This document shows positions 6,248-56,692 of a DNA stretch of 56,692 bases, in pieces. The notes below the pieces were generated by a model that saw nothing but the letters and a program-made list of their open reading frames with translations, did no database searches and was not told where the DNA came from. Source of the stretch: an uncultured Candidatus Micrarchaeota archaeon (GTDB lineage: Archaea; Micrarchaeota; Micrarchaeia; Anstonellales; J096); assembly GCA_938083015.1 (NCBI GenBank), contig CALKCX010000010.1, positions 1 to 56,692 on the forward strand. The letters are read 5' to 3'. Position 1 is the stretch's first letter; each line of letters opens with the position of its first letter. The translations under genes and the position numbers were made by a program.

Positions 6248-7587
6248 CCTACAGACCCTTCCATTTCTAAAGATATTAATCTATTTAATTCAATAGCGTA
6301 TTCTAAAGGTATTTCTTTTATAAATTCTTCTATAAATCCTAATACTATCATGGTCTTTGCCTCATCTTCATCAAACCCTCTAGACATTAGATAAGATAAC
6401 TGTTCTTGCTCTATTTTACCTACAGTAGCTTCATGAGTTATTTGAACATCTTTTTCATGAATTTCAATATAAGGATAGGTGTCTGTTCTACTTTTAGGAT
6501 CGAGTAATAAAGCATCACACGATACAGCTATTTTACTATTATAAGCTCCTTTAGCAACCTTCACCCAACCTCTATATCTTGTTATACCACCACCCATTGA
6601 TATGCTCTTTGATACTATTGTTGAACTTGTATCTGGAGCAAGATGTATTGCCTTACCTCCGCTGTCAATTAATTGATCTTTACCTGCTGATGCTATCGAT
6701 ATTATCTTGGCCTTAGCTCCTCTTTCTTTTAGATATATGGCCGGGTATTTATAAGTGTACTTTGAACCTAAATTCCCGTCTAACCATTCTACATAAGCGT
6801 TTTCATATGCGATTGCCCTTTTAGTAACAAGATTATAAACATTTTTACTCCAGTTTTGTACAGTAGTATATCTTACTCTAGAATTTTTATGAGCAAATAC
6901 TTCAACTACTGCTGCATGAAGAGAATTTTTACTATATATAGGTGCAGAACATCCTTCTATATATGATACTTCTGCTTGATCTTCTACTATAATTAATGTT
7001 CTTTCAAATTGTCCCATTGATTGGTTTTGTATTCTAAAATAAGCTTGTAAAGGTCTATCTACTTTGACTCCTTTAGGTACGTATAGAAATACTCCACCAC
7101 TCCAAAAAGCTGTATTTAAAGCAGCAAACTTATTATCTCGAATAGATACTAAGGTGGCAAAATACTTTTTAACAATATCTGGATGTTTTTTCAATCCTTC
7201 GTCAAGACTTGTAAATATAACCCCCATTTTAGATAGAGTATTTTGTATTTTCTCATATAAAACGTTACTTTCATATTGGGCAGTTACACCTGCTAATACT
7301 TTTGCCTCTGCTTCTGGAATACCTAATTCTTGATATATTTTTCTCACATCTTCTGGTAGATCTTCCCAATTATTAACTCTATTGGCTTTAGGTTTTAGAT
7401 AATAAACAATATCATCATAATCTATAGGTTCTAATTCTACCCATTTAGGTAATTCTAAGTTTTTAAAATGTTGAAAAGCTTTCAATCTTATGTTTAACAT
7501 CCACTCTGGTTCTTCTTTCTCTTTACTTATGAACTTAACAGCTTCTTCACTTAATCCTTTATCCCATATAGCTTCATAATCTATCAT
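6244..7587 (-). CDS. sufB: Fe-S cluster assembly protein SufB
   Basis: GQFERTLII, YIEGCSAP, SLHAAVVE, RYTTVQNWS, DTYPYIE, HEATVGKI..YLMSRG. Confidence 0.95.
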   Translation of the reverse strand: MIDYEAIWDKGLSEEAVKFISKEKEEPEWMLNIRLKAFQHFKNLELPKWVELEPIDYDDIVYYLKPKANRVNNWEDLPEDVRKIYQELGIPEAEAKVLAGVTAQYESNVLYEKIQNTLSKMGVIFTSLDEGLKKHPDIVKKYFATLVSIRDNKFAALNTAFWSGGVFLYVPKGVKVDRPLQAYFRIQNQSMGQFERTLIIVEDQAEVSYIEGCSAPIYSKNSLHAAVVEVFAHKNSRVRYTTVQNWSKNVYNLVTKRAIAYENAYVEWLDGNLGSKYTYKYPAIYLKERGAKAKIISIASAGKDQLIDSGGKAIHLAPDTSSTIVSKSISMGGGITRYRGWVKVAKGAYNSKIAVSCDALLLDPKSRTDTYPYIEIHEKDVQITHEATVGKIEQEQLSYLMSRGFDEDEAKTMIVLGFIEEFIKEIPLEYAIELNRLISLEMEGSVG

Positions 7588-8165
7588 TTTTTAAACACAC
7601 CTTTAATTACATCTAATAATCTATTCTTATCTAGTTTATTTGCACAGTATAATGTTTTAATTTTTATCTTTTCATCATCTCTATTAAACAAAGATAGACC
7701 TTTAAATACATAGAATACCTTACCAGTCTTAATGTATTCTTCATATATAATATCGAATTTCTCAGAATGGAAGTTTTGACAATGAGGACATATAGGACTG
7801 GAAAATTCTATTAACCAGATCTCTGCATTAGGATTTCCTAGAGAGATATCATCAGGTTGATATAATCTTGTATCTTTAGAACCTATTGGATTGTTTAAAG
7901 CATTTTTGAAAACCATTATATCTCGATTTCCGACTAATTTATCTTGATTTATAATAAAAGACGGTGTCCCCGTTATATTATATATTCTGGCCTCTTCTTT
8001 AATTCTATTAATGTATTGATCTGCTTGTTCTGAGTTTATACAATCTTCGAATTCAATAGGATATTCGGTATTTGAAGGTATTATTGACATTATATACCAA
8101 AGACCGTATATGAATATTATCATAAATAATACTCCGCCAATGATCATTGTTATATCTAGCTTCAT
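7584..8165 (-). CDS. Membrane-anchored DsbA/BdbD-like thioredoxin-fold protein, circularly permuted
   Basis: N-terminal TM helix. The GTPSFIIN cis-Pro segment comes before DDISLGNPNAEIWLIEFSSPICPHC. Confidence 0.8.
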   Translation of the reverse strand: MKLDITMIIGGVLFMIIFIYGLWYIMSIIPSNTEYPIEFEDCINSEQADQYINRIKEEARIYNITGTPSFIINQDKLVGNRDIMVFKNALNNPIGSKDTRLYQPDDISLGNPNAEIWLIEFSSPICPHCQNFHSEKFDIIYEEYIKTGKVFYVFKGLSLFNRDDEKIKIKTLYCANKLDKNRLLDVIKGVFKK

Positions 8166-8197
8166 AATTTAAATATTAGATTAATATTAAAAATTGA

Positions 8198-9304: not shown

Positions 9305-10147
9305 TTTCTCTAACACATCTTCCAAATATATTTTATCAATCTTAACAGGATTACCTCCTAATCTTCTAATAACTTCTTGATCTAAAGTATTCGAATTATT
9401 CTTATATATTATCCCTATAGGTATTCTTTCCCATTCTGTATCATAAGGTTCATTTGCTTTCTTCCATGCTTGTTCAAAATCTTCAGGATTATGATCTGTA
9501 ATATAAACTCTTTTCTGGTACCATTCATATCCATTTACAGTATTCCATGTTACACACGGTTGATATACGTTTATATAACTAAACCCTTTATGCTCTATAG
9601 ATTGTTGAATTAATTGAGATAGATGTTTTATATTACCAGCATAACCTGCTGAAACCATACTGGCCTTTTGAGATACTAACATAGGTATAGGTCTTACTGG
9701 TTCTATTGGAGTACCATCAGGATATGTTTTGCTTTTAAATCCTTTTCTAGATGTAGGACTGCTTTGACCTGTAGTTAGTCCATACACTTGATTATCTTGC
9801 AATATATATGTTATATCTACATTATATCTAGTAATATGAAGTAGATGATTTCCACCTTCTGACAATCCATCTCCGTCTCCACCAATGGCAATAACAGTAA
9901 GATCTGGATTAGCTATTTTTATACCTAAAGCTAATGGTAATAATCTACCGTGTAATCCTTCGTAACCATATGTTCTTATATAATGGGGTGTTTTGCCCCC
10001 ACATCCAATACCAGATACTATAACTACTTCACTAGGATCTTTGTCAAGATTTGCTAAAGCTGTCTTTATCGACATTAATATTCCAAAATCTCCACAACCA
10101 GGACACCATTGTGGTTTTTCATTAGTATTTATCAAAGCTATATTCAT
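9296..10147 (-). CDS. 2-oxoacid:ferredoxin oxidoreductase beta subunit
   Basis: WCPGCGDFG, SGIGC, LHGR, GGDGDG..EGGNH, DNQVYGLTTGQSSPT, QPCVTWN; SD GGGTGA upstream. Confidence 0.95.
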   Translation of the reverse strand: MNIALINTNEKPQWCPGCGDFGILMSIKTALANLDKDPSEVVIVSGIGCGGKTPHYIRTYGYEGLHGRLLPLALGIKIANPDLTVIAIGGDGDGLSEGGNHLLHITRYNVDITYILQDNQVYGLTTGQSSPTSRKGFKSKTYPDGTPIEPVRPIPMLVSQKASMVSAGYAGNIKHLSQLIQQSIEHKGFSYINVYQPCVTWNTVNGYEWYQKRVYITDHNPEDFEQAWKKANEPYDTEWERIPIGIIYKNNSNTLDQEVIRRLGGNPVKIDKIYLEDVLEKLR

Positions 10148-10151
10148 TTTC

Positions 10152-35480: not shown

Positions 35481-36367
35481 TTGAATTAAAGACTTTGATA
35501 AAAGCATATCGAAAGGAACAGAATTCAATAGAAGAAGTATTTGAGAAATTATTACCTGAATCTCCATTTTACGATATATATTATGATAAATACAATACTT
35601 ATCTATATCTTGAAGAGAATATTGAAAATATATTGTCATCTAGGAAGAATTTAAATAATTACATAAGATCTCTATCTTTTCAAGATACAGTAAAATTCGT
35701 ATACTATGTTACTAACAACTATCCAGAAGTACGCTTTTACAGAACAAATCATCATAATGATTTTGTACTTGAGAGTTTTGGTCTATTAAGAATTAAAGAT
35801 AAGAATTTACTAGAATACTACATATCAATAGATAAAATAAAGAATATGGAATACTTTGATCCCCCAGAGATAGATAGTATAGGTAAATACAGTTCTCTGG
35901 CGTATTATGCTTTATTATATAATAATTTTGACGTTTTAGATTTACTATTAGAAAGGACAAATCAATATTATCATGCCGGTATAGGTATTAATTATTACCT
36001 ATGGAACCAAGGTGAACACGATAGATTTATAGATAGTCTATCAACGCAAAGCATATTAATACCACAATATTCCTATGTTAGCGATACTAATTTTGATCTT
36101 ATTTCAATGGTATGTTTAGACGACATATTCTATATATCTCCTGACAAGATATTGTATAATGTTTTACCAGCTTATCTAAGAGAAAGATATCTAAAATTTA
36201 GTTCAGATCAAGTATTAGAGACTGATGTTGCAGATATAATTAATAATCTAGAGCAGATAAAATATATGATAGTATTTGGTAAATTAGAATATATATCTAT
36301 ATTTAAGTCGATAATATCATTGCTTGACGATATAGGTGTTGATATTATAGAATTGGAAAAATTCTAA
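35477..36367 (+). CDS. Hypothetical protein
   Basis: 296-aa ORF coupled to cutA (ATGA overlap); no motif recognised. Confidence 0.6.
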   Translation: MIELKTLIKAYRKEQNSIEEVFEKLLPESPFYDIYYDKYNTYLYLEENIENILSSRKNLNNYIRSLSFQDTVKFVYYVTNNYPEVRFYRTNHHNDFVLESFGLLRIKDKNLLEYYISIDKIKNMEYFDPPEIDSIGKYSSLAYYALLYNNFDVLDLLLERTNQYYHAGIGINYYLWNQGEHDRFIDSLSTQSILIPQYSYVSDTNFDLISMVCLDDIFYISPDKILYNVLPAYLRERYLKFSSDQVLETDVADIINNLEQIKYMIVFGKLEYISIFKSIISLLDDIGVDIIELEKF

Positions 36368-39021
36368 CTTCTCTCAAAACTCTCTTTAAACTTCGAATAA
36401 ATTTGTAGTAAACTGGGGTTTACAGAAGGTTTTGATGTCGATAAAACGGTTTCTATTTCGCTTATATCAAACTTTTTACCTATTAATTCAGCTTCTAACA
36501 TCTTTCTTTTTATATTTTCACATATGTTTACTATATCGGCATGCGTATACCCATCTGTTCTTTTAGCTATAATTTCTATTATTTTCGAATCTAAAAACTT
36601 TGAAAGATGCTTTGATATCAATGCTCTTCTTATATCTAAATTAGGCAAATCTACATAGACTATCTTGTCAATTCTTCCAGGTCTAAGTAATGCAGGATCA
36701 AGTAGATTAGGTAAATTGGTAGTTGCCATAAAGAATACTCCTTTTCTATCTCCTAATCCATCTAATTCTTGAAGTAATTGTCCGACTAAAGGATTACTAC
36801 CAGTTCTTATAGGAGTTATCGTATCTATTTCATCTATAACTATTAATGCTGGTGCTCTTTCTCTAGCTAGATTAAATATTTCTTTTATCTTAGCTGCTCC
36901 TCTTTCATACCCTTCTTTCAATATCTCTGAACCAGAGATGAATATGAATGGCAATTTAAATTCTCCTGCTGTGGCCTTTAAGAAATAAGTCTTACCTGTA
37001 CCAGGTGGCCCAAATAGTAATATACCTCTTGCTGGTTTTATTCCATATTTTTCAAATATCTCTGGATTTTTAATAGCTTGTTCAATATATAATCGCATTT
37101 CACTTTTTAGTTCATCCATATCTACTACATCTGAATAGTTAAGTTTTGGTATAGATACATCGTCTTTTTGTGATTCTAATCTTCTTTCAAATTCTAACTT
37201 GAATTTCTCATAAGTTTCTAACATCGATATACTTATAGAAGGTTTTATGCTCTTTATAGCTTCCAATATATCTTGAGTAGTAATCTTTATTAATCTTCCC
37301 TGTTCTACTGCTTGATTAGCTACTTTTCTATTTACTTCTTGAACTAGATTTGCTATATCGGCACCGCTATATCTTTCTAATAAAGCAGCTATTTTATCAT
37401 AATCTATCTTATCATGAGGTAATCTTCTAAGATAATATTTCAATATCTTCTTACGCTCTTCTAAATTTGGAGGTCTCATGTATATTATCTTGTCAATTCT
37501 TCCAGGTCTAAGTAATGCAGGATCAAGTAGATGTGGTACATTGGTCGATGCAACAAAAACTATTGGTTTCTCATCTTTTATTCCATCTAATTCTTGTAAT
37601 AATGTATTTAACATTCTAGTAGTAAATTCTTCTACACCTGGTAAATCTCTTCTTTTTGCAATCATATCAATTTCATCGAAAAATAATATTACAGGTGCTT
37701 TCTTACGTGCATACTGGAAAAGTCTAGATATATTTTTCTCTGGACTTTCACCATACATTCTTCCCAACATCTCAGATGTTTTAACATATAACAAAGGATA
37801 ATCTAACTCTTTTGCAAGAGCATTCATTAACAACGTCTTACCTGTACCAGGTGGCCCAAATAGTAATATACCTCTTGCTGGTTTTATTCCATAAGCGTAT
37901 TTTAATTCAGAGCTTTTCAACGGATTAATTATAGAATTTTTCAGCTCTGCTTTCACATCTTCATAACCAGCAACATCGTCTAGTCCAGATAGGTTACTAA
38001 CACTAAGTTCGACTACAAATGGCATATCTTTAACTATAGAATACTTCTTTATCTCTACTTCTTTAGAAAAACGTATACCGGCCATATTAGATATTAATAT
38101 GATTATCACGGTCAAAATCGGATATATTATTACACCTAAACCCGGTTTATAATTTTGATATGGATAAATATAAAATAAATATACTGGTATTAATAGTAAG
38201 ACGGGCAATGCTGTTACAGCTTCATTAGGTATGTTTTTAATTCTTATAATTCCAGTCAAATAAGTAGGGAAAAACATTATAAAAGACCATATTATTATGT
38301 AAGATAATAACATATCATCGAATATACCTTTGATAATATTGCCCATTACAGCGTATATATTATTGCCAAACTCATAATGTTGTTCAAAATTAAATATATT
38401 TGCAAGTATTCTAGGTATTCCTTTTGAAAAGAATTCTAAAACCCCCAATTTATCCGTATATCTATAAGGTTCAAAGGTAAAATAACTTAGACGTTCAGAT
38501 TTTAAAAAGAATGTCGACTGCGTATCTAATACAGTAATCAATCCAAAAACTATTATTACAGACAATACTGCTAATATCATAGCTGTCCTAGATCCTATGG
38601 TGTAAGCTGATAATAAATAGGCCAATACTACCAGACCATCTAATACACTAAATGGGGGTTGAAGTAAAGGTAGAAATAACATCATAAATAATAAAAACAC
38701 GGCATTGGTATTACTCCAAAGGAAAAATATCATAATAGATAATAATAACAATCCTAAATTACCAAGTGTTGCACCAATATAGTAAAAGCCCAATACTGCC
38801 ATTAATACAGCTACCATTATTCCAAGCTTAAAGTTATAATAAGATATATAACCAGGGATTATGGCAAGTATAGGTGTTAAAATATATGGATAAGGTGGTA
38901 ATGCTAAAAGAGATATTAGAGACACGATATAAACTAAAAACGCCCTTGTATATCTCTCTTCTGTTATAATTAAGTTTATCTTCGATTTTATTATTACATC
39001 TATTGAATCCAGAGACATCAA
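36364..39021 (-). CDS. Membrane-embedded double-AAA (CDC48-like D1/D2) ATPase
   Basis: About 320-aa multi-TM N-terminus, then two AAA modules (GPPGTGKT / FFDEID and VIDEID / [14 protein letters not shown]). Confidence 0.88.
36661..36707. repeat. 47-bp exact direct repeat, copy in AAA D2 (partner 37486-37532)
   Basis: tatcttgtcaattcttccaggtctaagtaatgcaggatcaagtagat is identical at both places. Confidence 0.9.
36989..37047. repeat. 59-bp exact direct repeat, copy in AAA D2 (partner 37835-37893)
   Basis: gtcttacctgtaccaggtggcccaaatagtaatatacctcttgctggttttattccata is identical at both places. Confidence 0.9.
37486..37532. repeat. 47-bp exact direct repeat, copy in AAA D1
   Basis: Identical to 36661-36707. 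Confidence 0.9.
37835..37893. repeat. 59-bp exact direct repeat, copy in AAA D1
   Basis: Identical to 36989-37047. Confidence 0.9.
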
Positions 39022-41248: not shown

Positions 41249-42766
41249 ATGGAGGGATTAGAAGTAAGTAAACTTAAAGGCTATGATCTTGCTATTAACA
41301 TTAGAAAAATAGACAATATAGATAAATTGGCCAATAATCCTGATGTTGAAAAAATAGATATTATAAATGGTTACGTCAACATTAGATTAAAACAAGAATA
41401 CTATAAGAAAATAGAATTAAACACAGATAGAGAACATAAGGTAGTAGCTATAGAATACCCTTCTGTTAATCCGAATAAACCATGGCATATAGGTCATCTT
41501 AGAAATGCAATAATAGGGGAAAGTATGTATAGAATACTTAAATTAAAATACGATAAAGTAGAAAGAATAGATTATATAGATGATCTTGGATTACAAGTTG
41601 CCCAGAGTTATTGGTATTATACAAAATACGGAGTATCAAATGAACATGATAAATTTGATCACAGAGTCGGTATTGATTATGTTAAAGTCAATCAGATGTT
41701 TCAAGATAATGAACACGAGATAAGAGAGATATTAAGACAAATGGAAGAAAACAATATTGCTAGAGACTTCGTAGATAAAGTATTAGATGCCCAATTAGAG
41801 ACAGCAAAACTGTATGGAATAGGGGCAGATTACAGAATATACGAAAGCGATATAAAAAGAGATATATTTGAAGTAGGTCTAAATAAGCTAAAAGATCTAG
41901 GTTATATTGAATATATAGATAATGGTGATTTAAAAGGTACTTATGTGACAAAACTAGGTAAAAAGGTAATTATAAGAAGCGATGGTACAGCTACATATCT
42001 TGGAAAAGATATCACATTTCAAATGTGGAAAGCTGGTATAATAGATGGATTGAAGTTTATTAAAAAAGATAATACATGGTATTCTCATAACAAAGGAGAA
42101 TTTAAGAATATTAAAGCTAATATAATAATCAATGTAATTGGTATAGAACAATCTTCTCATCAGAATGAAATTAAAGAGATATTTAAACAGATTGCACCTG
42201 AAGTAAATTATCTACATCTTGCCTATCAAAGAGTTAAGTTAAAACAAGGACATTTTTCAGGAAGATCTGGAAATTGGATAGGATATACTGCCGATGATCT
42301 ATATAGAGAAGCTTTAAATAGAACAAATAATCATGATCTTGCTCTAGCATCGATAAAATTCTTTATTCTTAAACATAATCCTAAGACAGAAGTAATATTC
42401 GATTGGGATAAAGCTTTAAGTACAACAGGCGATTCTGGAGTTTATGTATTATATAGCTATGTAAGAATGCTAGGATTGGAGAGAAACGCTTTAGTTCAAC
42501 CTAATCTAGAAAGTTTAGACGATGATGATAGAGAATTACTAAAATACCTGTTGATGTACAAATCTTCTATAGATAAAGCTATAAGATATCTTGATCCTTC
42601 TGTAATCGCCGAATATGTATTAAATATTGCTGAAAGCTTTAATTCATATTATTCTAAACATAGAATATCGAATAATCCTTCTAAACTATGGGTAGTAAAC
42701 AAGATTAAGATTCTTTATGAGAAGATGTTAAACTGTCTAACCATTCCAATCGTGTCAAGTATTTAG
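41249..42766 (+). CDS. argS: Arginyl-tRNA synthetase (compact)
   Basis: EYPSVNPNKPWHIGHLRN, RSDGTATYLGKDI, FSGRSG, GDSGVYVLYSYVR, FNSYY (DALR domain). Confidence 0.93.
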   Translation: MEGLEVSKLKGYDLAINIRKIDNIDKLANNPDVEKIDIINGYVNIRLKQEYYKKIELNTDREHKVVAIEYPSVNPNKPWHIGHLRNAIIGESMYRILKLKYDKVERIDYIDDLGLQVAQSYWYYTKYGVSNEHDKFDHRVGIDYVKVNQMFQDNEHEIREILRQMEENNIARDFVDKVLDAQLETAKLYGIGADYRIYESDIKRDIFEVGLNKLKDLGYIEYIDNGDLKGTYVTKLGKKVIIRSDGTATYLGKDITFQMWKAGIIDGLKFIKKDNTWYSHNKGEFKNIKANIIINVIGIEQSSHQNEIKEIFKQIAPEVNYLHLAYQRVKLKQGHFSGRSGNWIGYTADDLYREALNRTNNHDLALASIKFFILKHNPKTEVIFDWDKALSTTGDSGVYVLYSYVRMLGLERNALVQPNLESLDDDDRELLKYLLMYKSSIDKAIRYLDPSVIAEYVLNIAESFNSYYSKHRISNNPSKLWVVNKIKILYEKMLNCLTIPIVSSI

Positions 42767-43028
42767 GAAATCTATCTAAAATAGGTCTTCCTTTTCTATA
42801 TTTTATTATACCTATCACCATATTATCTATTTCAAATATATAATTGCCATCTTTCATCTGAGGTAATTCTCTATTATTATATTGGTCTATTGATATAGAT
42901 ATTCTTCGATTGTCTTTTTTTGAAAGATCACTCATAGCATAAGCATAATTTATATTATCTAGATCTATCAATAGGCCTCTCTCTCCTATATTAAAACTTT
43001 TAAGTTCTCTACTCATCAACCTATCCAT
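42705..43028 (-). CDS. Hypothetical protein, last gene of the surface operon
   Basis: 107 aa; starts 1 nt after the stop of the 1363-aa gene; overlaps the argS 3' end. Confidence 0.5.
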   Translation of the reverse strand: MDRLMSRELKSFNIGERGLLIDLDNINYAYAMSDLSKKDNRRISISIDQYNNRELPQMKDGNYIFEIDNMVIGIIKYRKGRPILDRFPKYLTRLEWLDSLTSSHKES

Positions 43029-43029
43029 G

Positions 43030-46000
43030 TTATTCTTCGCATCTCAACACGAATCTTGAAACACACCAATCAGCATCGTATGTTTCATAGAAAACTATAT
43101 CGTATATTGGTGAAAAAGTAACTGTTCTATTTCTTTCGTTAGGGTAGATATTCCCCCAATGATAAGTACAATTATCATCTCTTATAATAGCTGCCACAGA
43201 AACATCATTTACATTTACATTATATAATACTGGTTCGCATCTACAATTACTACTAAAATCAAAAAGGCCCGATCCATAATCTTGATAACATCTTACTTCA
43301 TATATATTTTGAGTATAAGGTATAGGTATATTTTGAGTGGTATTTGTTCTTAATCTTAAGTTATTATAACCTCCTTCGGAAGCTGCACTACAATTATCTA
43401 AATTTAGACTAATACTAGTAGTATTACCAAATCCTATTGTTCGATATCCTGGTGAAACCATACAACTCTCTTGAATAATCCATGGATTCTCAAATCTACC
43501 TTCAAAAACTCCGAAACCTGATAATGTCAATGTAAAGTTTCTGTGAATACATTGCTCAGGGCTATGGGGTTCTTCATTAATTGTAAGAAGCGATATTTGT
43601 GAAGTTACAGTTCCTCGAATATTAGATATTCTACCTTCTTTATAACATGTTGCTGGTTTACAAAAACTTTCTAATCTATAGCTACAATTAGCCGGTAAGC
43701 ACATCATATTGGTTCTATTATTATATCTATATTCGACAAAATCGAACATTCTATTTCCGATTTCATCGTATATTACAGGATTTGCACCCTTTATATACTG
43801 TTTTGCAAGTTTATAAGTCAAAAACCTACCATCTGGAGCTCTTATACATATGGTTTTATCATTATAATAGTTAGACGTAGCTATTTCTAAGCTATACCTA
43901 GCAAAGTTATTTCTATTGATTAAAACATTATATGTAGGGAAAATATCACCAGTTCTTACCTGAGGTACAGGATCTGGAATACATGTTATAGGTTGATTGT
44001 ATTGCTCATCAACAACATAACTACATTCTGATCTGTTTTCTGTTTGATATAAAACTGGAAGTCTTGCAAAACTACTTAATACAGATCTAGATAATTCCAT
44101 ACTACTTGAATAAGCGTTATTTTTTAACATGAAATCCTTCATATTACCTATATGTATTCCCATTACTCCATGACCAGATAGATTATGGCTATGGTTTACC
44201 AATAAATCTACAAATTCTTTTGCATAATTACTACTTCCATTTATATATAAATAAATTGGCATGCCCCCGCTTCTTTTATTTATATCTTTTAAAACCGATA
44301 TTAGTAAATTTATATCTGGGGCATTGTTTACTGTTACTATATAAAACAATATATCTTCTTGCGGAGAAGGTTTATTATTATTTACACCAGGACAACTTAA
44401 AAGATTATTATTCGATATATCTTCAGTTCTTGTATTATAATCAGGAACATGATAACTTATATTGCCACTTCCTATATTCATATTTCTCATAGTGGTTATT
44501 AAACAAGTAGGACATATAGATTTTAGTGTATTATAAGAATTACTTTCACCAAAAATACCCCCACCAAATAATGGATTACTTCTAACTAATATTACGCTAC
44601 CTATAGGAGATGCAGAATATTTTATAAATGGTCTAGGTATTCTCTCATTAGCTAGTATAAACACATCTACTTCACGTAATACTTTTTTAAGATAATCAAT
44701 AGGCACGTAATCTATGAACATTATAACTTGTCTTCCTTCCATCAAGTATTTAGTAACATCTCTTGTAAATGGGTAATGCTTATAAAGTCCATATTGATAA
44801 TCTCTTCTAATTACGAAAAGCAGTTCTCCATCAAGACTTCTATTCATAGCTACTGTACCTTGATAACAACCTATTAATCTACCAAAATCATCAAAGGCAA
44901 AACTAGCGTATTCGTATTTTTGCTTTGACGGACTAGAATATGTATATGTTCCTCCATAATTCGTATCTGGTTTTGCACAAGCATATTTAGCAATTTTTAT
45001 ATTATCCGTACTCTTACCACTATATTCTATTTGATTAGGCATGTTAAATAAAGTTACAGCTATAGAGTTTAAAGAAGGATTAGGGGGCACAGGTAGTCCA
45101 AATATTCTAATATCTAAATCTAAAAACTCTTGCGTAGTATTATTTACAGTCTTATTAACTCTTATACCTTTACAATCTCCATAATTACCATTACCATCCT
45201 CTATTAATATAACTACTTTTTTCAAATAAGTAATATCATCAAATTGAAATTCGTATCTTTTAAATGTAATATTCCACAATTCTTCATTTCTATTAGGACA
45301 ACCAGCTCCACCAGTTATGGCGTCACAAACTAAAATTTCATTATTGTTTCCACTAAAACAAGCTTTTTTCAATGTATAATTGTTAAAATCTAAATTATCA
45401 TTAACTGGAATAACTACCGCGTTTCTACCTTTAAACTTTATTGTCTTTCTAGGTATAAACTCAGGACTTTCAAATACATTGGTACGATTGTAAGTAAGAC
45501 TAGGCTTTACTTCAGAACCTACTTTTAAATTAAGCATAGGTCCTTGATAATTATAGTATGCATAACATGTTACAGGATCACACCAACAATCCAAAGATTG
45601 ATTATTTGAAGCATTTATACAAGTATACCTAGCATAGTATTCTACAGAACAAGTACCACCACTTGAACTATAATCTTCATAAATACATTCAAAAGGAAGA
45701 CCTGTAAAATTGTAATATCTATTCATATATCTATCAAATCTCTGGATAAGGGGTCTTGATGTATTATCTGGACTAAAACCAAATCTTTGATAGTATCTTT
45801 TAGCTATCTCTTGCATAATATACATTGGGTATTCCTCTTCTATAAATATTTCAGATAATGTCATGTTAAACGTCAGAGTTGTAGTAATTCTAGAAGAAGT
45901 GCAAAACGTAATTAAAAATCCTCCTTGACTATATTTGGTCAAGTTTAAATCTTGAAGTTTTAAAATAAAATTATATTTTACTCTATATATGTTTTTACCA

Positions 46001-47121
46001 TTTACATTGCGTATATACTCATAACTTATATTGCCAGTTTCTACAAACGCAGTATAATTACCAGGGTTTAACACAAAGCTTTCTCTAAATCCAAATCCAA
46101 GACCTATTCCGAGAAAACAACCTGTCATAAGGCCCCCTCCTGTGGTTAGAGAAGATTGATTTAAGTAAATCTTATGAAAGAAATTTGGATGAGAAGGTTG
46201 GGCAAAAGTTTTAAACAGTCCTACAGGGTATCTTTCGCTAATCCTATCTAGACTAGCAATGATAATTAAAAGTCTATAAAAGTTTTGATCATTTAATATC
46301 TTGGCCGTATCATCATATACGCTATATATGTATTCGTATCCATATGATTTATTGTATTTTGATCTGTAAAAAGATTCCATGGATTCTCTACCAGTATTGG
46401 GCATCTCACACATCAATAGACAGCTTTCCCAAGTTTCGTATTCTCTACCAGCACACGTATATTTAGTATTATTTAATTCACATCTTCTCTCTGCTTCAGG
46501 AACTATATTATAGAAAATAGGGTTTAGACCTTCCATACCTTGATAATCTCTATCAAATGGGTAAAAGTATTTATAATGTTCATATTCTAATATAGAATCA
46601 CCAACTCCAAATTTAGTACCGTATATGTTAAATTTATCCATATCGTATTTACCGACAAACTTTCTAGATAATGTTCCATAGAGAAGATTGAACGGAGTCT
46701 TTTGCTTTAATTCTTCTCCTTGATCTGCAGGTAACGTGTTATTAAACATGAATTTTTGTATTAAAAAATCATAATTTACCTTCTGATTTCCCGTATACTT
46801 ATCGTATACTAACATCGTAAATCCTGTTTTACAATTATCTATATTTGCGTATCTACAATAAGGAATATCTACTCTAGCTGATAAACCATTTATTGATAAA
46901 TTAGTATTGTAACATAATCTAGCTAAATCTGAACAACTGCCATCGCTTATCTGCATTGACACTACTTGATTATTCGTAACATTTCTTAACTCGACACATC
47001 TTCCATCTGTTATGTTTTGACAACATATATCTCTAATAATAAAACTTGACTGATTTTGTAAACAACCAGATAATATTATTAATATTATAACAATCTTAAG
47101 AACTGTATAGGGGCCCCCCAT
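43030..47121 (-). CDS. Large Cys-rich secreted lipoprotein-like surface protein (1363 aa)
   Basis: IVIILIILSG|C lipobox; many Cys and NxS/T sequons; strong SD GGAGGT (47130-47135) 8 nt before the ATG. Confidence 0.85.
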   Translation of the reverse strand: MGGPYTVLKIVIILIILSGCLQNQSSFIIRDICCQNITDGRCVELRNVTNNQVVSMQISDGSCSDLARLCYNTNLSINGLSARVDIPYCRYANIDNCKTGFTMLVYDKYTGNQKVNYDFLIQKFMFNNTLPADQGEELKQKTPFNLLYGTLSRKFVGKYDMDKFNIYGTKFGVGDSILEYEHYKYFYPFDRDYQGMEGLNPIFYNIVPEAERRCELNNTKYTCAGREYETWESCLLMCEMPNTGRESMESFYRSKYNKSYGYEYIYSVYDDTAKILNDQNFYRLLIIIASLDRISERYPVGLFKTFAQPSHPNFFHKIYLNQSSLTTGGGLMTGCFLGIGLGFGFRESFVLNPGNYTAFVETGNISYEYIRNVNGKNIYRVKYNFILKLQDLNLTKYSQGGFLITFCTSSRITTTLTFNMTLSEIFIEEEYPMYIMQEIAKRYYQRFGFSPDNTSRPLIQRFDRYMNRYYNFTGLPFECIYEDYSSSGGTCSVEYYARYTCINASNNQSLDCWCDPVTCYAYYNYQGPMLNLKVGSEVKPSLTYNRTNVFESPEFIPRKTIKFKGRNAVVIPVNDNLDFNNYTLKKACFSGNNNEILVCDAITGGAGCPNRNEELWNITFKRYEFQFDDITYLKKVVILIEDGNGNYGDCKGIRVNKTVNNTTQEFLDLDIRIFGLPVPPNPSLNSIAVTLFNMPNQIEYSGKSTDNIKIAKYACAKPDTNYGGTYTYSSPSKQKYEYASFAFDDFGRLIGCYQGTVAMNRSLDGELLFVIRRDYQYGLYKHYPFTRDVTKYLMEGRQVIMFIDYVPIDYLKKVLREVDVFILANERIPRPFIKYSASPIGSVILVRSNPLFGGGIFGESNSYNTLKSICPTCLITTMRNMNIGSGNISYHVPDYNTRTEDISNNNLLSCPGVNNNKPSPQEDILFYIVTVNNAPDINLLISVLKDINKRSGGMPIYLYINGSSNYAKEFVDLLVNHSHNLSGHGVMGIHIGNMKDFMLKNNAYSSSMELSRSVLSSFARLPVLYQTENRSECSYVVDEQYNQPITCIPDPVPQVRTGDIFPTYNVLINRNNFARYSLEIATSNYYNDKTICIRAPDGRFLTYKLAKQYIKGANPVIYDEIGNRMFDFVEYRYNNRTNMMCLPANCSYRLESFCKPATCYKEGRISNIRGTVTSQISLLTINEEPHSPEQCIHRNFTLTLSGFGVFEGRFENPWIIQESCMVSPGYRTIGFGNTTSISLNLDNCSAASEGGYNNLRLRTNTTQNIPIPYTQNIYEVRCYQDYGSGLFDFSSNCRCEPVLYNVNVNDVSVAAIIRDDNCTYHWGNIYPNERNRTVTFSPIYDIVFYETYDADWCVSRFVLRCEE

Positions 47122-48068
47122 ATTAGACTACCTCCTGTAAGAATACCGTAAAAGTATAAAGCTATTCCTAAACTTAACCCCATACTTACCCATATTGCTA
47201 TATTTAATCTATTGTATACAAAATTTAAAAAGTTTTTTATACTATCAGTAGCTCTGCTGTATTTATCTAAATCAAAATTCATTAATTCTGCCGAGTAATA
47301 GCTAGTTCCATCAACTTTTAGTTTACTACCACCAACACCAAGTTGTACATTAGTCATACTATTTAGTAATGACATAGATAATATCATTGGAAATATGAAG
47401 TAAAAAGAGAATGTCAAACTTATTAATATCGCTCCTAGACCTTTGGTAAGATATAAAGCTCTTAATACTATACCTGTGATAAGAATCAATGGTGCCATCT
47501 CTCTTAAATATCTTAAAGCTTCTATTAATATAGATAAGTTAACTATTAAATTGAAAGATGACTTTATTATAAATCCAAGCTTTACTAGTTCTTTAGCAAT
47601 TATCTCTTTACCTTCTAATTGTTCCAATATTCTTTGAAATAACCTATATGAATAACCTGCTATAGAAAAATCAAAACCAGCAAATCTATTTACAATTCTA
47701 TCATAATCGTCTATTGCCCTATCTTTTATAGATATCAACAAATCTCTATATAATTCAAGATAAGTTATGATAACATCGATATAACTATCTCCGCTAGCAG
47801 GATTGCCTAAAGTAACTTGTCCTGAATAGTTTCTAAGATTCTCTTGAAATATTCTTAATTGTTCTTGTGCACTTTGAGTAAATGCAATACCTAAGAAGTT
47901 AAACAACAATAATAATGCTATTGCAAATATTACAGATTCAATCATATCTTGAGTGGCCATTTTCTCTTGATATGGCATATTAGCTATTTTATAAAATAAT
48001 ATTCGAATCAAATATAGGGCGAATACTATCATAATACCTAAAACTGACAATTCAACATACCCTCCCAT
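47085..48068 (-). CDS. CedA/VirB6-like membrane protein, paralog 6
   Basis: N-terminal TM hairpin (..KIANMPYQEKMATQDMIESV..), motif GIVLRALYLTKGLGAILISLTFSFYFIFP, C-terminal TM ending LTGG. Family name is inference. Confidence 0.7.
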   Translation of the reverse strand: MGGYVELSVLGIMIVFALYLIRILFYKIANMPYQEKMATQDMIESVIFAIALLLLFNFLGIAFTQSAQEQLRIFQENLRNYSGQVTLGNPASGDSYIDVIITYLELYRDLLISIKDRAIDDYDRIVNRFAGFDFSIAGYSYRLFQRILEQLEGKEIIAKELVKLGFIIKSSFNLIVNLSILIEALRYLREMAPLILITGIVLRALYLTKGLGAILISLTFSFYFIFPMILSMSLLNSMTNVQLGVGGSKLKVDGTSYYSAELMNFDLDKYSRATDSIKNFLNFVYNRLNIAIWVSMGLSLGIALYFYGILTGGSLIWGAPIQFLRLL

Positions 48069-49234
48069 TATATCACCCTTAAGAATAGATCCAAGAATGA
48101 GAATCTCTCTCCAAGTAGTATTACTATTGATTTTGCAGCTATAATCATAGCTACTATTGTTGAAGATAGGGAAAATGTAGATATGATAAATTGAGATTGA
48201 TAAGCTCGCTTTATCTCGGAATCAAGTATAGTTGTACTAGGTCTACCGAAGATTGCGCTAAATAAGTTACCACTAGTTGGTATACCAAATTCTATATCTG
48301 TACCTTTCTTATTGATGTATGGTGTTGATACAATATTTTTACAAGGATCAGTAGGGTCTACGAAGAGATTATTTATATTTATTACCAATTGCGATAAGAT
48401 ATTAGGTTCAAGATAACCAGGTAAGTTATCGGAAAAGTTTTTTATTCTATCATAATAACCCATTACATCATTATTAATATATTTGAAAAATATATTAGAT
48501 TGTAAATATATTATGACAGGTAATATTATTAGCATCACAAATGCTATTGCCATCAAAGTATTGCCAGCGAATTTCATTCCAGGTATTAACCTTAATATTA
48601 TGCCATATGCTAATAACAATACTATTGATCTTGTAGAGCTTAAGTTTAATAAACCATAATAAGAACCTAATATCTTGGTACTTAATTCTAAACTATTTCT
48701 AGCTGCTGCTAATGATTGTGCAATCGGTTCTATGTAATTAGTATAAGGTATAACTGTATACAATGAAAGTGAATTAGGAAAGAAGAAACAACCAGCATCA
48801 AAACCACCTATTGTTATATCGCTAGCACATCTACTACAAGTAAATGAAGAATAATGATACATTCTAGCTTCAGTTTCTATTAACATATAAGACATATTAT
48901 TTATCAATCCCAACATATACAATAAATACTGTCTCGATATATTATATATCGTTCCTTGAGTTAAAAACGATCCCGGGCTAACAGCTATGCTACTACCTTG
49001 AAATGCAGATAAGACAAAATCTGGATGCTGAATAGTTTCAAAATATATAAATCTATAGCTTATATAAGTCAATATTACGAATACCAATATTATTATGAAT
49101 TCTCTCATTCCCATGTCTACGTATCTTATCAACATCTGATTAGATAAAACCTTACCTAAAAGAAATATCAAAGCATAAAATATTAAATATATTACCATAG
49201 CTATTGCTATTGGTCCAGTAAATTGATCTAACAT
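48068..49234 (-). CDS. CedA/VirB6-like membrane protein, paralog 5
   Basis: LLGKVLSNQMLIRYVDMGMREF hairpin; GIILRLIPGMKFAGNTLMAIAFVMLIILP; C-terminal TM ..ILLG. Confidence 0.7.
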   Translation of the reverse strand: MLDQFTGPIAIAMVIYLIFYALIFLLGKVLSNQMLIRYVDMGMREFIIILVFVILTYISYRFIYFETIQHPDFVLSAFQGSSIAVSPGSFLTQGTIYNISRQYLLYMLGLINNMSYMLIETEARMYHYSSFTCSRCASDITIGGFDAGCFFFPNSLSLYTVIPYTNYIEPIAQSLAAARNSLELSTKILGSYYGLLNLSSTRSIVLLLAYGIILRLIPGMKFAGNTLMAIAFVMLIILPVIIYLQSNIFFKYINNDVMGYYDRIKNFSDNLPGYLEPNILSQLVININNLFVDPTDPCKNIVSTPYINKKGTDIEFGIPTSGNLFSAIFGRPSTTILDSEIKRAYQSQFIISTFSLSSTIVAMIIAAKSIVILLGERFSFLDLFLRVI

Positions 49235-53040: not shown

Positions 53041-54030
53041 CTATAATGATTCTATAAAATCAAAAGTTTTATAAGCATTCATTGCAAAAGCAGCTACTAC
53101 AGCTAATGATAGATTTGGTAAAGTTATCACCATAAGTTGATATAAACTAACTTTGTAATAAGATAAGTCTGGATTTTTTATGAATATGTTTTCCACATAC
53201 CTTGGATTATATATTCCTTGATCAGCATTAAATATATCTTCAAACCCCCTTAAATATATAGAGTATATAAATGGATATAGTATATGCATGCCTAATCCAA
53301 TAGCTATTAACATATCTCCTGCTTTTTTTAGACCTGGAAACAATCTTATAACAACCCCTCCTATTGCTATACCTGCAAACAACCCATTTCTTATAATTTG
53401 CAATATAAATAGATGAACTTGTAAACCTATATATATTGTTTCTAAGTCTCTAATTATTCTGTTAGTTATAGAATTATATACCATGTATTGTTTATATGGT
53501 AGATAAGTTATTACTGGAAAGATCATCGATTTTGTAATTGCCGATGTAATCAAACTAGGTTGATCTAAACTCATTATTACATATAATATCGTAGCACCTG
53601 TTATTGTAAACGAAACTATAGTAAAGCTATACGGTATGTTAGCTTCTCCTTCTCTCTGGGCCAATCTATCGTATGCCGATAATATATTGCTTAATAACAT
53701 ATCTGTTCTAGATTGTAAAGTATTCATAGAATAATCAAAATAATTACCTATACTTGGATCTATATTTGATTGTAATCTACATAAGAATTCACTAAAACCA
53801 GGTATTGCTAGAAGTATAAATATACTAAAAAGATAGTTTATAGCAGATGCTCTTACAATTATACGCTTTTGTTGATCAGCTATTAAGTAACTATAAATAG
53901 TAAACAATGCAAGTCCAATTAGTATTATGGTTATGATTTGATGAGCAATTCTTATCATATTATTATCTATTTCTAAATTACATGTTGCCGAACTTATAAT
54001 TATTAAGCTAAATACGCTCTTCAATACCAT
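53041..54030 (-). CDS. CedA/VirB6-like membrane protein, paralog 2
   Basis: YLIADQQKRIIVRASAINYL hairpin; GVVIRLFPGLKKAGDMLIAIGLGMHILYP. The ORF-track GTG 54045 is part of SD GGAGGAGGTGA, so ATG 54030 is preferred. Confidence 0.7.
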   Translation of the reverse strand: MVLKSVFSLIIISSATCNLEIDNNMIRIAHQIITIILIGLALFTIYSYLIADQQKRIIVRASAINYLFSIFILLAIPGFSEFLCRLQSNIDPSIGNYFDYSMNTLQSRTDMLLSNILSAYDRLAQREGEANIPYSFTIVSFTITGATILYVIMSLDQPSLITSAITKSMIFPVITYLPYKQYMVYNSITNRIIRDLETIYIGLQVHLFILQIIRNGLFAGIAIGGVVIRLFPGLKKAGDMLIAIGLGMHILYPFIYSIYLRGFEDIFNADQGIYNPRYVENIFIKNPDLSYYKVSLYQLMVITLPNLSLAVVAAFAMNAYKTFDFIESL

Positions 54031-56692
54031 ATAAGAAATAATCACCTCCTCCTAATAAAGATATAGATCGAATAGAAACTATGGCGACTATGAGATTGAT
54101 TAAATAGTATGCTATGTTAATGACATTCATAAATGCTAAATGTATCATCATATTATAACTTAATAAAATATCAAAGGCCTCTATCATTTGATTCGTTCCA
54201 CCAGTACCTACATTATTCATATTCGAAGTCTCAAGACTCCATATAACGGCTATTATCATTTTAATTATTCCATAGGCGATATCTGCGAATACATAGAATA
54301 AAGCTGCTGCTATTGGATATGTAATACCTATTATTTTAGATATTTGTAAGAATATCCAAGAACCGAATTTAAGAAATAGCCATCCAAATTGTAATCTATT
54401 TGCCCATATTGCTATTTCATCTAAATTATTCAATGCCGCAGCTACCTGATTATATATTTCACCTATCTTAGATTCTGCTATTATCAAATTTTGTTCTATA
54501 CCTTGAATAGTATTCAACATTATATTAACGATTATAACAGTAGTTACATTATATAAGAATGGCAATATGAATATCAATGTTATAGCTATACCTAATAGCG
54601 TAGATCCTATTCTCTTAGTAAAAGGTAATATACGTGCTATTAAAGCTAGATATAATAGAAAACCATAAGAATAAGATATTAAAAATTCGACTAGTTTAGT
54701 GTAATAATTTAGATTAAATACTATAGATTGGAATAATCTTACCAGACCTTGTGCATTATTAGCGTATTCATATATCTTTTTATTGAAGTTCTCTCTTTTA
54801 TTTAGTTCTACTACCCATATACTTATAGACCATTCCATAGGACTTATAGATGATAATATAGATGACATTGCGTATATTTTAGCTGCAGTTAAAGTAAGGT
54901 TGTTTAATTTATTCGATAATGCTGAAATGTTGTTTTTAGCTGTTACAAGCATATTTTCTGTCATTCCACAATAGAATGCATTCGAAGCAAATATAATAAG
55001 GAAGAATACAAATAATGTAACTAAATAAGATCTAAATTCTACCTTTGCACCCAATAGTATCTCTTGATTATTAAACAAATTCCCGAACATATATCCTAAT
55101 GCTATTAACAATATACCTATAACAGCTACTGTAACAAAAATATAAAGCATTCTTTGATTGCCATTTGTACCACATTGAAATGTAAATGGGGGCAATTCAA
55201 CATTTTCTTTCTTTCTAAAATCTACCCAATAAGATTCGGCAATATTGTTATTATTATCGCGACATCTAACCATCCATCGATAGTTACCATCATTACCTAA
55301 ATTGACATTTACACCTATATTGCCTGCCGAACCACTGTAAGTTTGACTAACATTATACCCACCTGGACCTTCTAAGATAAATTCACAAAAAACATTATTA
55401 GAACTTTCATCTACATAAGCTATTAGCTGAACATTATTACTATTAACATTTGTTCCAATAGGTGATTTAGGTGTTATCCTTGGGGGCACTCCATCTTGAT
55501 ATCTAAATCTAACTCCAGTAGAATTCTGATTTCCAGCTAGATCTACACAGGTAACATTAAAAGTATAATCTCCGTTATTAACAATATTTACACTTCTTCT
55601 TATAATACTATTCGGAGATGTTTCTGTATTATCAGAATATAAATTAGCTACAATTAAATTGCACGTAAGCTTATTAGGTGATGGTATTAGATCGAATACT
55701 CTTACTTGAAGATCAATAGGAGATGCGTATGTCAAAGATCCTTCATCAGGGTATATTATTGATATCTCTGGTGGAGTAAAATCAACGATAAACACTCTAG
55801 ATTGTGAAGTTCCTGTATTTCTTGGCCCCCTATCTGTACATTGTACAACAATATTGTATAAACCTTCACTTAGATTTGTATATATTCTCTCAATTCTAGA
55901 ATTGTTTCTAACATCATTTATAGTTTCTATAACAAGACCAGTAGCAGTATTGTTTATAATACAATCTAACATATCCACAGGACTATCGTTAACTTCAAAT
56001 GTTATATTTACTGGTTTGATTGTCGTATTATTAGTAGCGAATATAGGTAAAGCTGGTGGCGATAATATATTTATTGTAGCTGTCTGCTCAGTATATCTTC
56101 TTATATCTCGCGTTTCTGTACTATTACGTTTAGTACCTGTAAAAGATGTATTTCTGGTTGTATCCTTACATTCTATAGTAACTCGATGATGGCCCCAAGG
56201 CAATCCTGATATTGTATTGTTAGCACAACCTTGATTACCTGGAAAATGATTTTCTATAAACTTTATATTGTTAATCCGTATTGCACATAATATATCATTA
56301 TTATCGTCATTTACACAATATCTTATATTTATAGAATCATTATAAAAAGGAGAACTAGGTTCTATTACAAGATTTCTTATTTGCGGATTTTCAAAATCAA
56401 AAAGTAAAGGATTAGATCTAATGGATTCGTTGTTTGTGCAGTTTAATTCAGCGTACCCATATCCGGGATCTAAGCCTGAAGGACGTATAGAAATTGAACA
56501 TGAATAAGTTGCCGAGCTATTATTATTGCCATAATCAACACACTGTCCCACCCAAGAACAGCTACCAGGAAAAGATTTTATAGAAACACCGTCTTTTACA
56601 TAGAGTGTGCAAGATAAAGGATCTGGAGGTTGAATGGCATTACAATTTGGTGGCCCATACATACGTTCATTAAAAACGTGCGTAAATTCTCG
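54008..56692 (-). CDS. CedA/VirB6-like membrane protein, paralog 1, with N-terminal Ig-like repeats (probably 5'-truncated by window)
   Basis: Frame stays open above ATG 56662 to the window end (REFTHVFNER-MYG) and there is no signal peptide at that ATG. Ig-like units (DFTPPEISIIYP..GDYTFNVTCVDLAGN), then MFGNLFNNQEILLGAKVEF hairpin and LIARILPFTKRIGSTLLGIAITLIFILP. Confidence 0.8.
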   Translation of the reverse strand, partial: REFTHVFNERMYGPPNCNAIQPPDPLSCTLYVKDGVSIKSFPGSCSWVGQCVDYGNNNSSATYSCSISIRPSGLDPGYGYAELNCTNNESIRSNPLLFDFENPQIRNLVIEPSSPFYNDSINIRYCVNDDNNDILCAIRINNIKFIENHFPGNQGCANNTISGLPWGHHRVTIECKDTTRNTSFTGTKRNSTETRDIRRYTEQTATINILSPPALPIFATNNTTIKPVNITFEVNDSPVDMLDCIINNTATGLVIETINDVRNNSRIERIYTNLSEGLYNIVVQCTDRGPRNTGTSQSRVFIVDFTPPEISIIYPDEGSLTYASPIDLQVRVFDLIPSPNKLTCNLIVANLYSDNTETSPNSIIRRSVNIVNNGDYTFNVTCVDLAGNQNSTGVRFRYQDGVPPRITPKSPIGTNVNSNNVQLIAYVDESSNNVFCEFILEGPGGYNVSQTYSGSAGNIGVNVNLGNDGNYRWMVRCRDNNNNIAESYWVDFRKKENVELPPFTFQCGTNGNQRMLYIFVTVAVIGILLIALGYMFGNLFNNQEILLGAKVEFRSYLVTLFVFFLIIFASNAFYCGMTENMLVTAKNNISALSNKLNNLTLTAAKIYAMSSILSSISPMEWSISIWVVELNKRENFNKKIYEYANNAQGLVRLFQSIVFNLNYYTKLVEFLISYSYGFLLYLALIARILPFTKRIGSTLLGIAITLIFILPFLYNVTTVIIVNIMLNTIQGIEQNLIIAESKIGEIYNQVAAALNNLDEIAIWANRLQFGWLFLKFGSWIFLQISKIIGITYPIAAALFYVFADIAYGIIKMIIAVIWSLETSNMNNVGTGGTNQMIEAFDILLSYNMMIHLAFMNVINIAYYLINLIVAIVSIRSISLLGGGDYFLYGIEERI

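Follow-up and report, generated by a model that had tools for sequence, protein, structure and literature searches.

We analysed contig C10 from the assembly of an uncultured Candidatus Micrarchaeota archaeon of the order Anstonellales (518 kb, 15 contigs, 29% G+C), i.e. the whole 56.7-kb contig, hereafter the window, and focused on the gene of a 1363-amino-acid (aa), cysteine-rich protein with a lipobox (P0001, hereafter the giant) that directly follows an array of six paralogous membrane proteins. The giant is well supported as the extracellular partner of this array. We further propose, with a probability of roughly 0.55, that it is a surface subunit of an envelope machine derived from a type IV secretion system (T4SS), in which the six paralogues form the core and a VirB4-like ATPase is the motor. 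In the following, G numbers designate genomes, L numbers the loci compared and C numbers the contigs of a genome; L001, L002 and L003 are three close metagenomic contigs.

The giant is encoded by the eighth gene of a compact minus-strand operon, with overlaps or gaps of 0-38 nt across all eight genes. The features of the giant and of the array are located in the window as follows:

43030..47121, minus strand: gene of the giant Cys-rich lipobox protein (open reading frame (ORF) and translation; 1363 aa, ATG start, stop included, no internal stops)
47062..47121, minus strand: signal peptide and lipobox, residues 1-20 (n-region with K9, h-region IVIILIIL, then LSG and C20; read from the sequence)
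46507..46758, minus strand: family signature region, residues 122-205 (FMFNN ... FNIYGTKFGVGDSIxEYEHYKYFxPFD; orthologue comparison)
46087..46143, minus strand: Gly-rich hydrophobic loop GGGLMTGCFLGIGLGFGF, residues 327-345, lying within a long beta-hairpin sheet predicted for residues ~315-430
44032..44772, minus strand: putative alpha/beta domain resembling a TIM (triosephosphate isomerase) barrel, residues ~784-1030 (AlphaFold2 (AF2) model, Foldseek, column conservation), with CPTC (870-873) at 44503-44514
43033..43698, minus strand: C-terminal Cys-rich extension, residues 1142-1363, 12 Cys (orthologue comparison)
47085..48068, minus strand: membrane paralogue 6, 327 aa, sharing its last 37 nt with the start of the giant gene
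48068..49234, minus strand: membrane paralogue 5, 388 aa
49235..50395, minus strand: membrane paralogue 4, 386 aa
50395..53040, minus strand: membrane paralogue 3, 881 aa, with a large extracytoplasmic, Cys-rich insert (24 Cys)
53041..54045, minus strand: membrane paralogue 2, 334 aa, with an N-terminal two-helix hairpin giving a sub-threshold T4SS_pilin match
54008..56692, minus strand: membrane paralogue 1, at least 884 aa, with an Ig-like ectodomain (Big_13, Y_Y_Y, Big_3_3) and a 5' end cut by the contig end (its orthologues in close relatives have 919-928 aa)

A preliminary description, made from the letters of the window, had presented the giant as an extracytoplasmic lipobox protein encoded by the terminal gene of a paralogue array. 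The ORF, its translation and the 37-nt overlap with paralogue 6, which is also found in L001, L002 and L003, all agree with it. The signal peptide is MGGPYTVLKIVIILIILSG followed by Cys20 (reading MGGPYTVLK-IVIILIIL-SGC), i.e. a positively charged n-region and a hydrophobic h-region, then a lipobox of the form [LVI][ASTVI][GAS]C. A lipobox is present in all giant orthologues and in distant homologues (ISGC, IAGC, ITGC, MVGC, IPGC, MAGC), and it is kept along with the following CC pair even at ~20% identity. The giant has one hydrophobic segment, which is N-terminal, and no transmembrane (TM)-like segment beyond residue 29. Archaeal lipobox lipoproteins of the AliA/AliB pathway likewise end their signal peptide in [LIVM][SATP]G before the Cys, and DPANN archaea are predicted to be rich in such proteins (PMC12462473). 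Lipidation of the giant is a prediction.

With 45 Cys (3.3%), the giant has the second-highest Cys count in the genome, the proteome standing at 0.60% overall (median 0.27%). Clusters occur at residues 31-97 (DICCQN..GRC..GSC..LC..YC..NC), 479-519 (ECIY..GGTC..YTC..LDCWCDPVTC) and 1141-1159 (CLPANC..FCKPATC). Every string quoted in the preliminary description for the Cys-dense N-terminus, for the further Cys clusters and for the six putative strands treated below was found in the translation. Orthologues down to 37% identity retain every one of the 33 Cys in the giant core. Similarly, NxS/T sequons number 36 against 16.1 +/- 3.5 expected, a count reached in 0/2000 composition-preserving shuffles. 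The Cys-rich proteins of the genome are all secreted or membrane proteins, six of them starting with a lipobox-like signal. A candidate for disulfide formation outside the operon is located in the window:

7584..8165, minus strand: membrane-anchored DsbA-like thiol oxidase (Pfam Thioredoxin_4, 8e-24; DSBA, 1.5e-7)

This oxidase provides supporting context for extracytoplasmic disulfides. Given the enrichment in Cys and sequons, the conservation of the Cys and the DsbA-like oxidase on the same contig, the Cys-rich character of the giant is confirmed and is no chance feature. As a separate observation, the most Cys-dense protein of the genome is encoded elsewhere, by a 278-aa secreted ORF on the plus strand of contig C1 (LFSG before the lipobox C; 41 Cys, 14.8%).

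The six genes upstream of the giant encode paralogous polytopic membrane proteins sharing a common core, i.e. an invariant G..R...G...P between two helices plus a C-terminal helix with a tail; paralogues 1 and 3 also carry large ectodomains, Ig-like or Cys-rich. Gene order within the array is the same in the three close metagenomic contigs and in G007, G008, G012 and G246. A paralogue profile matched 266 of the 301 genomes sampled across the phylum Micrarchaeota, usually with at least 6 matches each. When operon position was mapped onto a maximum-likelihood tree of 66 paralogues from 11 genomes, 10 changes were needed (minimum 5) versus 42.9 for shuffled positions, and 0/200 shuffles gave so low a value. 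Operon position thus clusters in the tree, which implies that the sixfold duplication predates the radiation and that gene order has been frozen since. The operon proteins are only 24-32% identical to their G007 counterparts, versus 59% for the ATPase described below; judging from these sequence comparisons, such fast divergence would fit exposed, partner-facing parts.

Two further observations on arrays were made. In L031 (G246:C4:557000-576900), the protein at array position 3 (5450-8830) has 1126 aa and 84 Cys (7.5%) and that at position 4 (8827-11628) has 933 aa and 42 Cys, which shows extreme growth of Cys-rich ectodomains inside the array itself. In addition, paralogue matches were found at two loci in G124:C1 (~142-150 kb and 261 kb) and in G246:C4 (~62 kb and 557-577 kb), which suggests that the second array is duplicated or partial.

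The relationship of the array to T4SS is drawn from a linked VirB4-like ATPase and from VirB2-like pilin candidates, not from the sequences of the paralogues. These links consist of gene neighbourhood in other orders and of sub-threshold pilin matches. In the genome studied, the corresponding genes are located outside the window:

C8:58855-64704, minus strand: ATPase module encoding a 276-aa 2-TM protein, a 521-aa VirB4-like ATPase, a 144-aa 2-TM protein, a 233-aa coiled-coil protein and a 794-aa 2-TM protein
C2:15638-16296, minus strand: two tandem ORFs of 110 and 116 aa, candidate pilins, each with a signal peptide and two hydrophobic helices

The best match of the C8 ATPase is the VirB4 C-terminal domain 4ag5 (E 5e-11), and Pfam P-loop_TraG (3.5e-13), AAA_10 and TrwB_AAD_bind are also matched. 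An ATPase of this type was found in 32/32 Micrarchaeota genomes tested (35-59% identity), and the module proteins except the 144-aa one have orthologues inside super-operons of other orders, with 35-50% identity for the ATPase. A single super-operon in G114, G122, G111 and G107 unites the six paralogues, two copies of the 2-TM protein, the ATPase, the coiled-coil protein and a ~770-aa 2-TM protein; in G114 and G122 its last gene encodes a large Cys-rich protein that is not homologous to the giant. In G063, genes for two 2-TM proteins and for a 1047-aa HerA/DUF87 and AAA_10 protein (L032:1485-4628, G063:C2) come after the array. An intein containing a LAGLIDADG homing endonuclease (Intein_splicing, 1.7e-20; LAGLIDADG_3, 8.7e-24) splits the 1047-aa protein, the exteins of which are 50% identical to the intact 521-aa ATPase of C8; the flanking 2-TM protein and the coiled-coil protein of G063 also have orthologues in C8. 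In G171, one paralogue adjoins the 2-TM protein and the ATPase. A VirB4-type ATPase, as expected of a T4SS-derived system, is thus associated with the array through operon sharing in G063, G114, G122, G111 and G107.

Regarding pilins, small membrane proteins of 123-125 aa encoded upstream of the G107 and G111 arrays match TrbC/VirB2 at E 1.5e-5 and 2e-3; the former, from a 123-aa ORF of L151, scores 25.6 bits against TrbC (cut-off 27.9) and the latter comes from L149. The 116-aa ORF of C2, which ends in Cys, resembles these proteins (pairwise blastp E 1.5e-8 and 5e-7). Only one T4SS_pilin-like signal was detected in the genome, in the hairpin at the N-terminus of paralogue 2 (20.5 bits, cut-off 26.6). 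This hairpin recalls the N-terminus of CedA/VirB6, which has been reported to be VirB2-like (PMC9905601), though at a sub-threshold match. Independently, VirB4-like ATPase genes with one or two in-frame TAG/TAA stops were observed in five genomes (G124:C1:337455-339008, G287:C11:13549-15102, G190:C2:56283-57839, G025:C1:189352-190893 and G027:C4:61253-62815); they are otherwise full-length (50-56% identity) and could be split genes, cases of recoding or assembly errors.

The distribution of the giant was then compared with that of the array. Full-length orthologues were recovered at 68%, 53% and 37% identity, every one annotated as hypothetical; word-index protein searches gave 5-7 relatives, all hypothetical proteins, and a HMMER search of a core profile against 1.84 billion representative proteins gave 8 proteins, all of the same lineage. 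No match to the giant was found in Pfam, NCBIfam (E up to 0.1) or PHROGs, and PDB sequence searches with profiles of the giant and of the paralogues yielded chance matches or none. Single-sequence six-frame searches detected the giant in its own genus and the N-terminal 240 residues also in two other genera of the family. At greater distance, hhalign aligned the giant family with a 1300-aa giant of G246, which belongs to another family of the order, at a probability of 99.4%, including the lipobox, the CC pair and the signature. The latter, invariant within the genus for residues 122-205, reads F[KR]FG[VIL]Gx[ST]FxE[YF]..FP in G007, G008, G012 and G246. With a profile of residues 765-1141, homologues were detected in 78/116 genomes of the order, each of them lying within an ORF of ~1000-2000 aa. 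The C-terminal 220-residue extension (12 Cys) is optional: it is absent from the 1139-aa orthologues P0006 and P0007 and variable in others.

When coordinates were compared, at least 28 genomes, representing at least 8 families, had the giant 2.5-6.4 kb downstream of an array match and on the same strand. The expectation of the preliminary description that homologues would be tied to such arrays is therefore in line with what was found, the giant following arrays across the order and giving no sign of occurring independently of them. Literature searches retrieved no description of the six-paralogue array or of the giant, and Sakai et al. 2022 report no conserved membrane cluster of DPANN archaea.

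According to the reading that we favour, the giant would be exported by Sec, probably lipid-anchored at Cys20, heavily disulfide-bonded and N-glycosylated, and would sit on the outer face of the cytoplasmic membrane. It would represent a surface subunit, specific to its lineage and evolving fast, of an envelope machine found throughout the Micrarchaeota. Six polytopic paralogues, anciently diverged and fixed in position, would make up the membrane core of this machine, probably as one hetero-oligomer, and the VirB4/TraG-type ATPase would be its motor. With such a core and such a motor, the apparatus would be chromosomal, T4SS-derived and thus Ced/Ted-like in kind. The giant would most likely cap or scaffold the extracellular part between membrane and S-layer, where it may contact a partner cell or a conduit, and its TIM-like domain, having lost its catalytic centre or never had one, may act as a structural or binding module.

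A more specific version of this proposal can be put forward only tentatively: the six paralogues might form a pseudo-hexameric ring matched to the hexameric VirB4-type motor and the giant a wide extracellular barrel spanning from membrane to S-layer, the whole being a symbiont-side portal for the uptake of host material. The envelope of the cultured Micrarchaeon ARM-1 displays an unidentified 21-nm 'barrel-shaped docking platform' (PMC11329633). A portal of this sort would be the same kind of assembly.

Several points weigh against the T4SS-derived machine. The paralogues, the array of which the preliminary description had tentatively called CedA-like, have no sequence match to VirB6, TrbL or CedA in Pfam and PDB sequence searches, and neither TrbL/VirB6 nor any other recurrent Pfam family was detected among 39 paralogues; even among Ced, Ted and VirB6, no sequence similarity is shared (PMC9905601). 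In the order of the window, the ATPase module never adjoins the array (0/80 closest loci with an array within 10 kb), and all pilin matches lie below Pfam cut-offs. In G302, an array is present but a giant could not be detected. The large Cys-rich protein that ends the operon in other orders has no detectable homology to the giant, hhalign of the giant profile against the protein closing the G114 super-operon being negative. It follows from these non-homologous operon enders that a giant is recurrent, but that the present family is not indispensable. Of two AF2 models, model 1 (residues 21-1141, 14 sequences) is poor, with a predicted local distance difference test (pLDDT) score of 53.8 and a predicted template modelling (pTM) score of 0.35, and leaves the most conserved segment, residues 90-205, unmodelled (pLDDT ~25). 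Finally, the binding of the giant to the array or to the ATPase is a link that we infer.

Some of these points would also suit a stand-alone adhesin for host attachment, comparable to other giant surface proteins of DPANN archaea and merely co-transcribed with the array and working independently of it. The giant is of the surface type, large, fast-evolving and rich in Cys and sequons, arrays without its family exist (G302, and other orders with non-homologous Cys-rich proteins), and contig C10 encodes another giant Ig-repeat surface protein. However, the place of the giant directly after paralogue 6, with translational coupling, is conserved in at least 8 families of the order, and the large Cys-rich or Ig-like ectodomains of paralogues 1 and 3 suggest a shared extracellular assembly. 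We therefore regard an independent adhesin as unlikely, although it is the alternative that survives best.

The giant could also be an extracellular TIM-barrel enzyme (a glycoside hydrolase, or lyase/aldolase-like) opening host S-layer glycans. The preliminary description had suggested a degenerate (beta/alpha)n barrel, possibly a glycoside hydrolase acting on such glycans. Of this, the topology was recovered in part: model 2 (residues 765-1141, 33 diverse homologues; pLDDT 69.5, pTM 0.59, 71 residues above 90) and model 1 both place beta strands on all six strings, i.e. QVIMFIDY (798), SVILVR (842), CPTCLITT (870), DILFYIV (923), PIYLYING (955) and GVMGIHIG (985), with helices alternating between them. 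In model 2, ~7-8 beta/alpha units can be drawn, helix 3 being missing and a hairpin inserted. Foldseek searches of the PDB returned no match at E 1e-3 or better for either model. The top 50 matches of model 2 are nonetheless all (beta/alpha)8 barrels, at E >=9e-3, TM-scores of 0.17-0.43 and root-mean-square deviations of 7-14 A; they include isocitrate lyase, sialic-acid and deoxyribose-phosphate aldolases, HisF/HisA, KDO8PS and designed TIM barrels, the best being 3e5b, 5c54, 3qyq, 1mzh, 2wjz and 7uek. Over ~250 residues, the order of strands and helices in both models matches that of TIM barrels of the aldolase, isocitrate-lyase and ribulose-phosphate-binding kinds. The domain is predicted to differ from these in being extracellular, disulfide-braced, CPTC-bearing and devoid of conserved catalytic residues. 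A degenerate TIM-like topology for residues ~784-1030 is thus weakly supported by the models, which come from shallow alignments and are of moderate or low confidence, the matches being weak (E ~1e-2).

The enzymatic part of the suggestion fared worse. No glycoside hydrolase appears within the Foldseek top 50 of either model, and no glycoside-hydrolase or CAZy-type Pfam match and no NCBIfam enzyme family was found for the giant. Conserved columns in the 33 sequences comprise P784, G841, C870 and C873 (CPTC), D923, G-K-P at 953-955 (K being M here), G985 and G988 (GxxG) and four further Cys; the conservation of D923, CPTC and GxxG is what an enzyme could claim in its favour, together with the barrel topology itself. 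D923 is, however, the sole conserved acidic residue and sits at the N-terminal start of its strand, unlike TIM-barrel active sites. With one conserved acid, the domain therefore lacks the catalytic acid pair of glycoside hydrolases. A glycoside-hydrolase function is not supported, an extracellular TIM-barrel enzyme of any kind appears quite improbable, and the TIM-like domain should not carry a glycosidase annotation.

The better parts of model 1 are the beta-hairpin sheet at ~315-430 (pLDDT 70-80), beta-rich modules in the middle and the beta/alpha region from ~784. A membrane-perforating or fusogenic giant, whose beta hairpins tipped by loop 327-345 would insert into the host membrane, could be read from the sheet strands of 13-27 residues, from the loop containing the giant's second most hydrophobic 15-residue window and from weak top matches to the pore forms of perforin-2, the membrane attack complex (MAC) and gasdermin, found alongside many TIM barrels. 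We give this very little credence: the model is of low confidence, the Foldseek probabilities are 0.04-0.38 with TM-scores of at most 0.13, Pfam gave no MACPF or gasdermin sequence signal, and the reading is weakened because the Gly-rich loop is genus-specific and absent in more distant homologues (G007, G008, G012 and G246). Against viral structures, the long sheet of model 1 matched maturation proteins of single-stranded RNA phages; these matches were dismissed as meaningless.

Equally remote is a lipid-anchored S-layer protein or general structural glycoprotein of the envelope: its size, signal peptide, many sequons and probable lipid anchor do resemble those of some archaeal S-layer glycoproteins. 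What weakens this reading is that the S-layer protein known from Micrarchaeota is described as almost devoid of sulfur amino acids and as carrying TIGR01564/01567 domains (bioRxiv 10.1101/2021.04.28.441871), whereas the giant has 3.3% Cys and no TIGR01564/01567 match (NCBIfam, E up to 0.1), weak TIGR01564 matches being located elsewhere, at C1/C2 contig ends. There, the N- and C-terminal ends of S_layer_MJ (TIGR01564) are weakly matched at C1:34532-34735 (contig end) and C2:251-472 (contig start), and a candidate S-layer gene may be split by the C1/C2 assembly gap.

On its downstream side, the giant is followed by a small gene:

42705..43028, minus strand: 107-aa cytoplasmic ORF, start codon one base past the stop codon of the giant

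Its 3' end overlaps the convergent arginyl-tRNA synthetase (ArgRS) gene by 62 nt. The protein has no predicted TM segment or signal peptide and no family match in Pfam, NCBIfam and PHROGs scans; counterparts of 100-105 aa exist in L001, L002 and L003, and it is possibly the ninth gene of the operon. Further along the window (36364-39021, minus strand), an 885-aa double-AAA (Cdc48-like) ATPase was noted, the neighbourhood of which (DUF373, a ~290-aa ORF, AAA) is kept in L002 and L003.

The nearest described analogues of the Micrarchaeota system are the DNA importers Ced (Sulfolobales) and Ted (Thermoproteales), which are chromosomal, T4SS-derived archaeal machines (PMC9905601). Common to these and to the system described here are a chromosomal location, a VirB4-like ATPase with polytopic membrane proteins and small two-helix pilin-like proteins (candidates only in the Micrarchaeota), and components too diverged for ordinary sequence searches. 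The Micrarchaeota system probably works like, and descends from, type IV secretion machinery. It differs in possessing six fixed paralogues where Ced has one CedA, in having a giant Cys-rich lipoprotein, which Ced and Ted lack, in the organism that carries it, an obligate symbiont with a genome of ~0.5 Mb, and in an ATPase motor that is unlinked to the array in the order of the window.

Another comparison can be made with the nanohaloarchaeal SPEARE giants, which contain a VirB4/TraG-like ATPase domain and were proposed to be part of a T4SS-like device for host interaction (PMC10266531); the idea that DPANN giants are parts of VirB4-powered devices has thus already been put forward for SPEARE (PMC10266531). 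In both cases, a giant protein on the surface of a DPANN archaeon would be functionally connected with an ATPase of the VirB4/TraG type. SPEARE proteins, however, combine an Ig-repeat ectodomain, a TM segment and the ATPase in one chain, whereas the giant studied here has no TM segment beyond its signal peptide and no ATPase domain, the ATPase being a separate gene on another contig. No sequence similarity between the giant and SPEARE was found by Pfam scan and HMMER search.

Bacterial T4SS include accessory subunits such as VirB7, a lipoprotein of the outer core complex, and PrgB, an operon-encoded adhesin of enterococcal conjugation. Like the giant, these are lipid-anchored or surface-exposed, system-specific subunits encoded in the same operon as channel proteins, but they have no homology to the giant, which is 10-30 times larger than VirB7. 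Archaea, moreover, are not known to possess an outer membrane or peptidoglycan.

These results bear on the question of how lipids, nucleotides and other metabolites physically pass from hosts to DPANN archaea, for which electron cryotomography has revealed tubes and a large docking barrel (PMC11329633). The system described here occupies ~19.5 kb (13.7 kb for the array and the giant, 5.9 kb for the C8 ATPase module), i.e. ~3.8% of the assembly. Conserved across the phylum, it combines a conjugation-type motor with six positionally fixed membrane paralogues and an exposed giant, probably a lipoprotein. Of these parts, the giant would be the likeliest to touch the partner cell; as it evolves fast and is order-specific, it constitutes a concrete candidate for host specificity and a handle for making this question testable in existing co-cultures. 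If the portal proposal is true, this six-fold-multiplied, giant-capped, T4SS-derived machine would be the long-sought feeding or exchange organelle of DPANN archaea.

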